The translations under genes and the position numbers were made by a program. A stretch of DNA of 5,793 nucleotides from Escherichia coli. Its GTDB lineage: Bacteria > Pseudomonadota > Gammaproteobacteria > Enterobacterales > Enterobacteriaceae. The stretch lies in the NCBI RefSeq assembly GCF_003334785.1, contig NZ_QOWV01000041.1; one strand, given 5' to 3'. Positions 2,584 to 5,793 of this stretch are shown here, one piece after another. Each line of letters opens with the position of its first letter. Positions within the stretch are counted from its first letter, which is position 1. Below the pieces are notes generated by a model. It was not told where the DNA came from. It did not search any database and saw only the letters and a list, made by a program, of their open reading frames with translations.

Positions 2584-2978
2584 ACTGTTATATGGCGAAT
2601 GACAGCAAAGGCCATTTTGTTACGGCGAAAGAAGCAGCGAAGCACAACCGCCAGGACGTTTTGTGCTGTGTGTCCTGTGGATGCCCGTTAACACTTCAGC
2701 GGGGCAATGACGGACAACCACCGTGGTTTGAACATGACCAGATGACTGTCGCTGAGAAAATCCTGCTGCGATGCACCTGGCTTGACCCGGCAGAGAAAGA
2801 GGCCCGTCGTTTGCATCTGCAGGGTATGACGGTTCCGGATTATACGGTGAAGGTGAGAAAGTGGTTTTGTGTGATGTGTGACGAAAATTATGAGGGGGAA
2901 AAGTGCTGCCCGAGTTGTGCTACCGGGGTATACAGCAGGGAGGGGGGGCAGGAGGGCAACTGGAAGGATAGGAACTGA
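2571..2978 (+). CDS. Cysteine-rich zinc-finger / zinc-ribbon protein B (135 aa), paralogue of protein A
   Basis: ATG 2571 is preceded by a consensus AGGAGG at 2561-2566 (4-nt spacer). The track ORF 2484..2978 starts further upstream, but the RBS supports 2571. Contains LCCVSCGCPL..PWFEH and FCVMCDENYEGEKCCPSCATG. It overlaps the stop of gene A (2581-2583) by 13 nt, suggesting translational coupling. Confidence 0.8.
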   Translation: MRILNCYMANDSKGHFVTAKEAAKHNRQDVLCCVSCGCPLTLQRGNDGQPPWFEHDQMTVAEKILLRCTWLDPAEKEARRLHLQGMTVPDYTVKVRKWFCVMCDENYEGEKCCPSCATGVYSREGGQEGNWKDRN

Positions 2979-3181
2979 GCGGTTCAGTCGCGGAAATCAG
3001 TTGCAGAGCTGTAATGATATCTCCGGGAGTGCTGCGTTGGTAGGGGCATCCCGGGATAGAGAAATTTTAGCACTTTGCCCTGAATGATTGTAGACGTCCC
3101 GAGTACTCGTACCGGTCTGAGTTATTACAGTTAGATATTCACTTTTTCTCCCGCATACTTCACATCTGTCAACGACGGATG

Positions 3182-3208
3182 AAAAGTGGTTCTTCCGCAA
3201 CCTGGGTG
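3182..3208 (+). repeat. Left terminal inverted repeat of the ISL3-family element
   Basis: AAAAGTGGTTCTTCCGCAACCTGGGTG at 3182-3208 matches the reverse complement of 4889-4915 (AAAAGTGGCTCTTCCGCAACCTGGGTG) at 26 of 27 positions. Confidence 0.75.
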
Positions 3209-3261
3209 GAAGAAAATGGATGAAACTTTCTGGCGAACAAGGATCTAAGCTGTTTTAAGTT

Positions 3262-4881
3262 ATGGGCAACGCAATGCACTCTCTTAAGACACTTCTACAG
3301 TTACCTTGCGGATGGCGATGCAGTCGACAAATTATTAGCTCTGACGGTATAACCCTCCATCTCCACGGAAAACGCAAAACAGCACAATGTCCTGAATGCT
3401 TTAAGCGTAGCGACTCTGTTCATAGTTGTCGTCGGCGCCGGATACAGCATCTACCCTGCTCAGGGCAGACGCTATGGCTTGTATTTTCCGTCCGCCACTG
3501 GTACTGCCGTAACCCGGCTTGTTCACGTAAAATTTTTGCCGAGTCGCTTGCTCCCTTCGCCAGTTCACACCAGCAGTCTTCACAGGCGTTACAAAATTAA
3601 CAACGTCAACTGGGATTAATAGCTGGAGGTGAGGCTGGAAAACGGGCTGCAACGGCAGTGGGTCTCCGTTGCAGTGCTGATACTCTTCTTCGCAGGCTTA
3701 TCAATACCCCGGAGACGAAACAGTCAGGCGCGCCTCATGTCGGTATTGATGAGTGGGCGTGGCATCGGGGCCACTGCTGCGGTATGTTAATAGTCAATCC
3801 TGATACTCACCGTCCCCTCGTCCTGCTTCCCGGCCGTGATCAGCGTACGCTGGCGACCTGGTTCAGAAAATATCCGGAAATACAGGTTGTCTCGCGTGAT
3901 CGCAGTGGAGTCTATGCGACAGCAGCACGTGAAGGTGCACCTCAGGCCAGACAGGTGGCCGATCGATGGCACCTGCTAAAAAATATTGGTGATGAGCCTG
4001 AACGAATGATGTACAGATATATGCCTCTGATACGTCTTGTTGTCAGAGAGTTATCACTGAAGAAATCACCTGAGCCAGAAATATCTGTGCCTGTAGCATC
4101 GCTCCGTCGTCTGGAACGCCTTAAACAGCACATCCGCAAAAAACGGCATCAGCGTTGGACAGAGGTTATGGCCCTGCATAACAAGGGATGTAGTTTCAGG
4201 GAAATATCCCGTATTACAGGCCTGTCGCGAGTGACAGTCAGTCGCTGGGTGGGTTCAGGAACATTCCCTGAAATGTCAACTAGGCCTCCAAAGCGAGGGC
4301 TTCTGGACCCATGGAGGGAGTGGTTAAAAGAGCAACGAGAATGTGGTAATTATAACTCCGGCCGGATATGGCGGGAAATGGTGGCCAGGGGGGTTACAGG
4401 CAGTGAAACCATCGTCAGGGATGCTGTTGCCAAATGGCATAAAGGCTGGATCCCACCGGTTACTACTGCCGCAAGACTTCCTTCAGTGTCCCGGGTAAGC
4501 CGCTGGTTGATGCCCTGGAGAATAATCAGGGGTGAAGAAAATTATGCTTTCCGATTTATTAGTCTGATGTGTGAAAAAGAACCGGAGTTGAAAATAGCGC
4601 AGCAACTGGTACTCGAGTTCTACCGTATTCTGAAAACCTAAAATAAATCACAGCTAAGCAGCTGGTTCACTCGGGTCCACGAAAGCGGCTCAGCAGAACT
4701 TCGGTGCGTAGCTGCGGGGATGGAAGCTGATGCTGCGGCTATATGTGAGGCAATCAGCAGTCGCTGGAGTACTGGTGTTGTCGAAGGTCATGTAAATCGC
4801 CTGAAGGTGCTGATACGCCAGATGTATGGTCGAGCCGGACTTGAACTACTTAGGCGGAGGGTAATGAGTCCACTGGCATGA
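3262..4881 (+). pseudogene. ISL3-family transposase, ~539 codons in a single frame, interrupted by two in-frame TAA codons (3598-3600 and 4639-4641)
   Basis: The track ORFs 3262..3600 and 3658..4641, plus the unlisted segment 4642..4881, are all in frame 1. Family-like sequence continues directly across both TAA codons (..QALQN*QRQLGLIAGGEAGKR.. and ..EFYRILKT*NKSQLSSWF..STGVVEGHVNRLK..). There is no frameshift. Confidence 0.8.
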
Positions 4882-4888
4882 AAATCTT

Positions 4889-4915
4889 CACCCAGGTTGC
4901 GGAAGAGCCACTTTT
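4889..4915 (-). repeat. Right terminal inverted repeat of the ISL3-family element
   Basis: CACCCAGGTTGCGGAAGAGCCACTTTT at 4889-4915; its reverse complement matches the left repeat. It begins 8 nt after the transposase stop (4879-4881). Confidence 0.75.
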
Positions 4916-4924
4916 GCACTGTTC

Positions 4925-5253
4925 GTGACAGTATGGCCTTTATGTACTCACTTTGTTACCGGTAGCTGGATCATCACTACCGTGCCGCAAATGGTGGTGA
5001 ACAGCATCAATTGTGGAATGAATGTTGCCGAAGCGACCAATGCGCCTCGTTTCCACCATCAGTGGTTGCCGGACGAGCTGCGTGTTGAAAAGGGTTTAGT
5101 CCGGATACGCTCAAGCTGCTGGAAGCAAAAGGTCAGAAAGTGGCGCTGAATGAGGCGATGGGCAGCACGCAAAGCATTATGGTTGGGTCGGATGGTGAGT
5201 TGTACGGCGCATCCGACTCGCGCTTGGTGGATGATTTAACGGCGGGGTATTAA
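4925..5253 (+). pseudogene. ggt: gamma-glutamyltranspeptidase 3' remnant, 5'-truncated at the IS and carrying a -1 frameshift
   Basis: Translation ..VTGSWIITTVPQMVVNSINCGMNVAEATNAPRFHHQWLPDELRVEKG, then after a frame change PDTLKLLEAKGQKVALNEAMGSTQSIMVGSDGELYGASDSRLVDDLTAGY* (stop 5251-5253), matches the GGT C-terminus as I recall it from E. coli. One T is missing from the T-run at 5095-5097. Relative to the remembered sequence there is also a probable 12-nt in-frame deletion (GSPGGSRII read as GSWII). The 5' boundary is approximate. Confidence 0.8.
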
Positions 5254-5292: not shown

Positions 5293-5715
5293 TTATGCGG
5301 TCAATAATCGTCCGGGATTATCGATACAGAGTTTTTTGAGGATCGTTTTATCGACGCCGCGCTCCGCCAGATAGGCCAGAAAAACATCTGGAACAAATCC
5401 CCAGCCATTACCGCCATTTTTAGCCCACATTTGTTTAAGGAAGACATCGTGGCTGAGAACAAGCTGATCGGCGTATCCCAACTCAATGAGATGAGCGACG
5501 GCATCGGCAGTCTCCTGCACCCCTGGCGCTATTCCCTCTTTCGGGAAGGTAATGTCTAGGCCAATCATGTCGAATTCCAGCCAGACACCTTTATCAAGCA
5601 TTTTCCGCTGATACGCCACGTCTTTTCCTGACGGATCCGAGTGTGCGAGAGAGACTTTATTTGGCGAGACGCCCATTTCACCTAACACAATGTCGAGTAC
5701 TTCGTAAGCGACTCG
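5293..5715 (-). pseudogene. Phosphotriesterase-family (PTE/Php-like amidohydrolase) gene, C-terminal ~140 codons only; frame closed upstream by an in-frame stop
   Basis: Minus-strand translation ..RVAYEVLDIVLGEMGVSPNKVSLAHSD..LVLSHDVFLKQMWAKNGGNGWGFVPDVFLAYLAERGVDKTILKKLCIDNPGRLLTA* aligns to the C-terminal half of E. coli Php-type proteins (..SMDIT..KANGGYGY..ENP..). An in-frame TGA at 5716-5718 ends the frame upstream, and no PTE-like continuation is seen in any frame of 5719-5793. The track ORF starts at GTG 5688. Confidence 0.7.
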
Positions 5716-5793
5716 TCAGAACCGTATTGATATTTACTGAGAGCTCAGATCAACTTTCCAGGGCAACAGATCGCGTACCCGGTTTGCCGGCCA

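Follow-up and report, generated by a model that had tools for sequence, protein, structure and literature searches.

An old, inactivated ISEc38 copy probably marks a rearrangement joint beside a ggt fragment in Escherichia coli

Layout of the locus

The window, by which we mean the whole stretch of 5,793 nucleotides of Escherichia coli DNA analysed here, begins on the left with pieces of a CP4-44-type genomic island and continues with an ISL3-type insertion sequence (IS), a short ggt-like stretch and the 3' part of a convergent php-like gene. The island pieces comprise the start of the istB gene of IS100, a hypothetical gene, alpA, a Gp2-family gene cut at its 5' end and two zinc-ribbon genes. 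The two zinc-ribbon genes overlap on the plus strand (2176–2978, with individual frames at 2176–2583 and 2571–2978) and are supported by their open reading frames and by the RefSeq annotation of the same DNA in E. coli PI7. The first-pass annotation of this sequence had placed island DNA to the left of the IS, and alpA, the Gp2-family gene and the two zinc-ribbon genes confirm this.

The left flank of the IS corresponds to the integrase-proximal end of the island. Paralogous islands match the window up to position 2955 only, and the next 211 bp (2956–3166), which run from the end of island homology to the tip of the IS, are unique to the locus, with no match elsewhere in the approximately 110 loci that we fetched. 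The last 150 bp of this flank occurred without the IS in none of the matches listed by a junction search of complete E. coli genomes. In one paralogous island that lacks the IS, the zinc-ribbon genes run into IS66 and other IS debris (locus L106).

The IS itself lies on the plus strand at 3167–4930 and is complete but inactivated, with a length of 1764 bp between tips TGTCA...TGACA. To its right is a 24-bp spacer, GTATGGCCTTTATGTACTCACTTT (4931–4954), that is neither IS nor ggt, followed by the 3' remnant of ggt on the plus strand (4955–5253). The php-like gene, which encodes a phosphotriesterase-related protein, is present only as its 3' part on the minus strand (5293–5703), convergent with the ggt remnant; it was recognized from its open reading frame and from the full 344-aa gene found in E. 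coli loci. The gene is cut at 5703 and joined to an interior fragment of an IS66-family (ISCro1-like) transposase gene (5704–5793), which matches ISCro1/IS66 tnpC with up to 100% identity. This php/IS66 junction (5703/5704) was found in no complete E. coli genome.

In complete E. coli chromosomes RefSeq annotates the same DNA as 'ISL3 family transposase (internal stop)' followed by 'gamma-glutamyltransferase (frameshifted, missing N-terminus)'. The gene order downstream in these chromosomes is php, a DMT transporter, a glutamine amidotransferase (GATase), a PfkB kinase, IS66 and IS4 remnants, a cobalamin-gene (cbi) remnant and then cobU-cobS-cobT.

Identity and ends of the insertion sequence

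Over its 1764 bp the window IS is 95.2% identical in nucleotide sequence to active ISEc38, without a single indel. Under the ISfinder convention, an IS species is defined by approximately 95% or more nucleotide identity to the reference element over near-full length. Plasmid and chromosomal copies about 95% identical to the window IS are named 'ISL3-like element ISEc38 family transposase' by RefSeq. By nucleotide identity, the window IS would thus belong to the ISEc38 species, although as a borderline case. ISEc38 is mentioned in 28 papers; those listed are, by their titles, genome surveys, and the one survey that we examined gives the name alone, with no ends or duplications.

The transposase pseudogene (3262–4881, plus strand, 539 codons) was delimited from the list of open reading frames, from its translation aligned to that of an active copy, from the NCBIfam profile NF033550 and from PGAP annotation. 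It is interrupted by two in-frame stops, at 3598–3600 (TTA>TAA) and 4639–4641 (CAA>TAA), which are predicted to make the window copy non-autonomous. With both stops masked, the conceptual translation scores 345 bits on NF033550 (ISL3 transposase; cut-off 180), and the intact homologue carries the domains PF01610 and PF14690. ISEc38, an E. coli IS that is common on F-type plasmids, shares with the window IS its 42-nt terminal repeats and its 539-codon transposase frame; the window copy differs in its two nonsense codons and lacks the 5–6 bp duplication of other copies.

The ends of the IS follow from a comparison of the window with six copies on plasmids, several on chromosomes and ten places where an identical transposase is encoded. 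The sequence shared by more than 15 independent ISEc38 copies, from plasmids and chromosomes, ends at TGTCA and TGACA, equivalent to window positions 3167 and 4930. The longest inverted repeat in the region has arms at 3166–3208 and 4889–4931 that are 81% complementary, and unrelated IS copies recovered in the junction searches align out to window positions 3164–3167 on the left and 4928–4931 on the right. Furthermore, an alignment spanning all 1764 bp was obtained with a Klebsiella relative of 73% identity, in which the 21-nt tips outside the GG core are present in a version of their own. The ends given in the first-pass annotation, 3182 and 4915 (or 3188 and 4909 for an alternative GG..CC core), were therefore misplaced, the first pair lying 15 bp too far in on each side. 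The two 8-mers that it had compared as flanking DNA, GACGGATG (3174–3181) and GCACTGTT (4916–4923), do differ as described, but because homology among the copies extends to 3167 and 4930 they lie inside the IS. The 8-mers outside the GG..CC core, TGAAAAGT and ACTTTTGC, differ as well, in agreement with the earlier reading.

Both terminal inverted repeats are 42 nt long and were located by repeat search and tip comparison. The left repeat (3167–3208, plus strand) starts with a 21-nt outer tip that we call type A, TGTCAACGACGGATGAAAAGT, and continues into the ISL3 box GGTTCTTCCGCAAC..., while the outer tip of the right repeat (4889–4930, minus strand) is of type B (TGTCACGAACAGTGCAAAAGT on the reverse strand). 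The ISL3 motif is present as GGTTCTTCC/GGCTCTTCC, 21 nt inside the tips. Which outer tip type lies on which side of the transposase varies among ISEc38 copies, and this suggested that the outer 21 nt might instead be a palindromic target site entered by the IS in either orientation. This idea was rejected: the target duplications sit outside TGTCA/TGACA, and the tips have co-diverged in the 73%-identical Klebsiella relative.

To measure these duplications, we compared the 16 left and 16 right flanks of ISEc38 copies in all 256 pairs, scoring shared ends of at least 5 bp. Eleven shared ends were seen, against 0.33 expected by chance. Duplications within a single copy, at the TGTCA/TGACA tips, were ACAAC (locus L004), CCTCC (L102) and CCTCCG (L098 and L101). 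Because shared ends are so far in excess of expectation and are located at the tips, ISEc38 makes duplications of 5–6 bp at its TGTCA tips. The chromosomal remnants at L009–L012 were also examined for duplications, and most of these are cut by other IS elements.

The norm for the ISL3 family is an 8-bp target-site duplication. An expectation of 8 bp is ill-suited to ISEc38, whose copies show 5–6 bp. As for membership of the family, the window IS matches the ISL3 transposase profile and has terminal inverted repeats with the GGNTCTTC motif, and an 8-bp duplication is absent. A literature search returned no review that gives ISL3 family norms, and one worked example, the ISL3-type transposon Tn7546, in which the inverted repeat GGGTCTTCGGA is at the very tip and the direct repeat is 8 bp long (PMC9782665). 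Tn7546, as a typical ISL3 element, and ISEc38 have in common a single ISL3-type DDE transposase and a GGNTCTTC box in the terminal repeats. In contrast to Tn7546, ISEc38 and its Klebsiella relatives have the GG box 21 nt inside TGTCA tips, and the duplications of ISEc38 are 5–6 bp rather than 8 bp.

It is conceivable, and we put it forward tentatively, that ISEc38 and its Klebsiella relatives form a subgroup of the ISL3 family in which transposition moves a unit that extends 21 nt past the canonical GG tips (1764 bp, versus 1722 bp between the GG/CC cores), the duplications are 5–6 bp and each of the four possible arrangements of the two tip types is found around identical transposase genes. 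A reference entry of 1722 bp would mean that databases define ISEc38 by its GG..CC core; were that so, both the ends and the duplications of the element would be mis-called at present. Any search for target duplications at ISEc38 should start from the TGTCA tips and look for 5–6 bp. Only the end structure and the duplication length of ISEc38 may be new, and mildly so, and the subgroup reading is a side result.

The ggt remnant and its displaced locus

Homology to ggt begins at 4955 and ends with the stop codon at 5251–5253, as judged by nucleotide identity, tblastn and PGAP annotation. The remnant covers about 103 of 580 codons, equivalent to residues 478–580 or so of K-12 GGT, and carries two lesions, the loss of 12 bp between CGGTAGC repeats and a frameshift of 1 bp near 5084. 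It therefore falls short of a functional gamma-glutamyltransferase gene, which has the full 580-codon frame with its N-terminal part and autoprocessing site. The first-pass annotation had rightly described the 5' part of ggt as absent, since a 3' fragment lies on the right and no 5' part lies to the left of the IS. It had also put the ggt-like sequence 10–35 bp from the right end of the IS. The distance is 40 bp from the end that was used then, which is close to that estimate, and 24 bp from the true tip at 4930.

The 24-bp spacer did not align to the ggt genes of K-12, Citrobacter or Salmonella and did not recur, allowing up to 5 mismatches, in the approximately 110 fetched loci. Because this spacer intervenes on the right and the 211-bp flank on the left, no recognizable unit ends exactly at an IS tip on either side.

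A 360-bp query covering the remnant, and thus the 3' end of ggt, matched 8226 places in 5424 complete E. coli genomes, and a query with the first 1428 bp of ggt matched 5434 places in 5426 complete genomes. Since the 5' query gives no more than these 5434 places, the 5' part of a second ggt copy is essentially absent from the 5426 genomes. Among the matches listed, genomes that carry the remnant have two places each, the remnant and the real ggt, which are 89–93% identical to each other. Judged by these matches, the truncated ggt is a second copy. The earlier claim that most of the chromosomal ggt had been removed does not survive this comparison, for the real gene is intact at ugpQ-yhhA-ggt in every genome. 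For the same reason, a partial ggt beside the IS is not to be taken as loss of ggt.

We scanned species-representative genomes with the php-like protein and found its nearest relatives in Citrobacter spp. and Salmonella enterica subsp. diarizonae (85–87% amino acid identity). At the corresponding loci of these bacteria, ugpC-ugpQ-yhhA-ggt, with an intact ggt, is convergent with php-DMT-GATase-PfkB. From window position 4960 on, the E. coli block is colinear with this locus over 4.47 kb at about 76% nucleotide identity, and this colinearity identifies the right-hand block as 4.5 kb of a ggt locus (ggt'-php-DMT-GATase-PfkB) that has been displaced. Comparison with a relative carrying an intact ggt had been proposed in the first-pass annotation, and in both Citrobacter and S. 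diarizonae ggt is indeed contiguous with the php block. Gene order and orientation from the 3' end of ggt through PfkB are the same in this native locus and in the E. coli block. Unlike the native locus, however, the E. coli block retains only the last ~103 codons of ggt, lies beside cobUST rather than ugpQ-yhhA and contains several pseudogenes.

In E. coli the block is positioned between the island and the cobUST genes, and its far side is closed by IS66, IS4 and cbi remnants beside cobUST. The joint had been described as a fusion of the island to the chromosome; what lies on the right is instead a displaced 4.5-kb piece of a ggt locus bounded by IS66/IS4/cbi remnants, not native chromosome. 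Its ggt part is nearer in nucleotide sequence to K-12 ggt (92.5% identity) than to the ggt genes of Citrobacter and S. diarizonae (81–82%), which points to an Escherichia-like source for the block. Among the species-representative genomes scanned, no Escherichia genome had ggt beside php, and the donor was not found there.

The joint is widespread: of 5426 complete E. coli genomes, 2646 carry the right joint and 2822 the left, in each case about half. No version of either window flank without the IS, that is, no empty site, was seen among the matches listed in the junction searches of these genomes, which are a sample of 60 per joint from which a rare empty site or an intact second ggt could escape. 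One F plasmid, pARG01, has captured the whole segment. Strain Z1322HEC0010 carries at the same locus an intact ISEc38 that is 99.3% identical to active copies, between flanks that are 97–98% identical to those of the window. This suggests that the IS at the locus in this strain was replaced or converted by an active copy. With at least one such replacement or conversion at the locus, the tips seen today may differ from those of the original event.

Origin of the joint

At its corrected tips the window copy is preceded by ...CACATC and followed by GTATGG..., with no duplication and no flank match shared with the tested copies. The claim that the IS lacks a target-site duplication thus stands at the corrected ends, on different bases than those compared earlier. 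A simple transposition insertion has a matching repeat at the tips and flanks that are contiguous in a relative without the IS; we found neither, the latter among the matches listed. We consider it probable that 3167–4930 is an old, inactivated copy of ISEc38 that marks a rearrangement joint, most likely produced through recombination between two copies, and is not a simple insertion.

The joint would have formed once, long ago. The likeliest route would be homologous recombination, deleting the DNA in between, of an ISEc38 copy in the island with another that lay just upstream of a ggt fragment truncated before then. A one-ended IS-mediated deletion would lead to the same picture, and at the window locus these two routes appear to fit alike and cannot be separated. 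Under either route ggt would have been cut by an earlier event and not by the window IS, because 24 unrelated bp lie between the IS tip and the ggt remnant.

Exchange of this type can be seen at other copies of the element. Three ISEc38 copies on plasmid CP096903.1 share half-duplications cyclically (GTAAT, TCCCGG and CCATG), a signature of recombination that has exchanged flanks among ISEc38 copies. Five plasmid copies of ISEc38 also sit at joints, because when their two flanks were joined into one query, as for an empty site, no contiguous match was obtained and each flank matched separately. For the window copy, the reciprocal half-sites would be a right tip followed by ACATC (pattern GCACYGTTCGTGACAACATC) and a left tip preceded by GTATG; among the copies compared, none with these half-sites was found. 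The first-pass annotation had proposed an IS-mediated adjacent deletion or recombination between two IS copies. A rearrangement joint is upheld by the absent duplication, the unrelated flanks and the exchange seen on CP096903.1, but the 24-bp gap means that the IS did not itself cut ggt.

We also considered whether the IS and the ggt'-php block arrived as one unit, for example with the IS at the edge of a mobile segment bounded by IS elements or within an integrated piece of plasmid, after which illegitimate or IS-mediated recombination joined the block to the island. ISEc38 bounds one side of the block and IS66 and IS4 remnants bound the other, ISEc38 is common on F plasmids, and pARG01 has picked up the same segment at least once. 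However, the bounds of the block show no second ISEc38 or matching repeat, the block matches listed are all at this chromosomal place with the exception of pARG01, and the pARG01 copy includes the island side, which indicates a secondary capture. We regard this history as doubtful.

That the window IS itself deleted most of the chromosomal ggt by adjacent deletion, fusing the island to the native chromosome, seems quite unlikely. Such a deletion would account for an IS without a target-site duplication, for the missing 5' part in the left flank and for the near-complete lack of the second copy's 5' part in E. coli genomes. It would also, however, put the IS tip directly on the deletion endpoint, whereas 24 unrelated bp separate 4930 from 4955, and it is at odds with a chromosomal ggt that is intact at its normal place in every genome and with right-hand DNA that is a displaced block, native to the ggt locus of Citrobacter and Salmonella and bounded by other IS remnants. 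Finally, we regard it as very improbable that ISEc38 simply inserted here and that mutation later erased its short duplication: although the copy is old (divergence of 4.8% from active ISEc38, two stop codons) and a few changes would be enough to hide 5–6 bp, the flanks come from unrelated contexts (an island module and a ggt locus), ACATC and GTATG match at 2 of 5 positions while the flanks of divergent alleles differ by only 2–3%, and the matches listed include no empty site.

The locus has little biological weight, being a fixed, decayed scar that about half of the complete E. coli genomes share. It is an ordinary structure, which routine annotation already labels as an ISL3 transposase pseudogene beside a partial ggt. 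Since it is so common among complete genomes, this remnant is probably one source of the many mentions of 'ISEc38' in surveys of E. coli genomes. IS copies that lie at rearrangement joints without target duplications are the textbook outcome of recombination between copies or of adjacent deletion. The window joint has the same absent duplication, unrelated flanks and loss of intervening DNA as known IS rearrangement joints, and in comparison with them it is nothing unusual.

IS-linked breaks at the window locus

At the right end of the window, the php-like gene is cut at 5703, and the sequence joined to it (5704–5793) comes from inside an IS66-family (ISCro1-like) transposase gene. This php/IS66-family joint at 5703/5704 was found in 0 of 5426 complete E. 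coli genomes, and we therefore regard it as an extra IS-linked break in the source genome. Two further gaps appear when the window is compared with E. coli PI7. At 186–187, 1155 bp are missing, comprising most of the IS100 istB gene and a small gene, and at 1489–1496, between alpA and the Gp2-family gene, 1667 bp are missing. These gaps have cost alpA its start and the Gp2 gene its first 136 nt; their joints have overlaps of 2 bp and 8 bp, respectively.

The same locus differs in other strains. E. coli Z1322HEC0010 (L095) has an intact IS here, with 99.3% identity to active ISEc38, between flanks that have 97–98% identity to the window; this suggests that an active copy has converted or replaced the IS at this locus. 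E. coli WP8-S17-ESBL-05 (L001) carries an IS1414 (IS256 family) copy and an adjacent deletion in place of island DNA, reaching 94 bp from the ISEc38 tip; this is a further IS-linked break at the locus. On the IncF plasmid pARG01 (NZ_CP049937.1; L107), a captured segment with the end of the island, the inactivated IS and php lies between copies of IS100, IS2 and IS1. The pARG01 gene table, which is incomplete, does not list the 3' ggt remnant (ggt'), although the interval from the IS to php is long enough to hold it.

Decay of the displaced block and variation of ggt

In E. coli, the genes of the displaced block to the right of the IS are decaying. At loci L001 (15181–18188) and L002 (18160–21162), an internal stop interrupts the DMT transporter gene and the PfkB kinase gene is frameshifted, and the amidotransferase is also frameshifted in some E. 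coli strains; php has remained intact. The real ggt is itself unusually variable within E. coli, its first 1428 bp being only 90–95% identical to K-12 in 1899 of 5426 genomes.

Recombination and apparent multiplication of ISEc38

Plasmid CP096903.1 of the mouse E. coli strain RSHH22 carries three ISEc38 copies (L103, L104 and L105) with cyclic half-duplications, GTAAT, TCCCGG and CCATG. This pattern shows that these copies have exchanged flanks through recombination. Because 8–10 places match ISEc38 in the chromosomes of related mouse strains, the element seems to have multiplied there. In a paralogous island of E. coli RSHH22 and SK6988 (L093 and L094), another ISEc38 copy adjoins a Gp2/zinc-ribbon module, whose second zinc-ribbon gene is cut by the IS, and, as at the window copy, there is no target duplication. 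ISEc38 is repeatedly associated with Gp2/zinc-ribbon modules.

ISEc38 transposase and tips

Residues 303–394 of the ISEc38 transposase (window 4168–4443) also match the IS21 transposase model in its N-terminal part, with a score of 48 bits, below the model's cut-off. This match suggests an extra DNA-binding segment, which would account for the long 539-residue protein. In the window (3167–3187 and 4910–4930) and loci L003–L012, L093–L105 and L108–L109, ISEc38 carries the canonical ISL3 box GGYTCTTCCGCAAC 21 nt inward of its tips, which are of two types, A (TGTCAACGACGGATGAAAAGT) and B (TGTCACGAACGGTGCAATAGT). Identical transposase genes are flanked by each of the four possible tip pairings (A..B, B..A, A..A and B..B), and some tips have internal deletions of 3–8 nt. 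Relatives in Klebsiella, at 73% identity, have the same tip layout as ISEc38.
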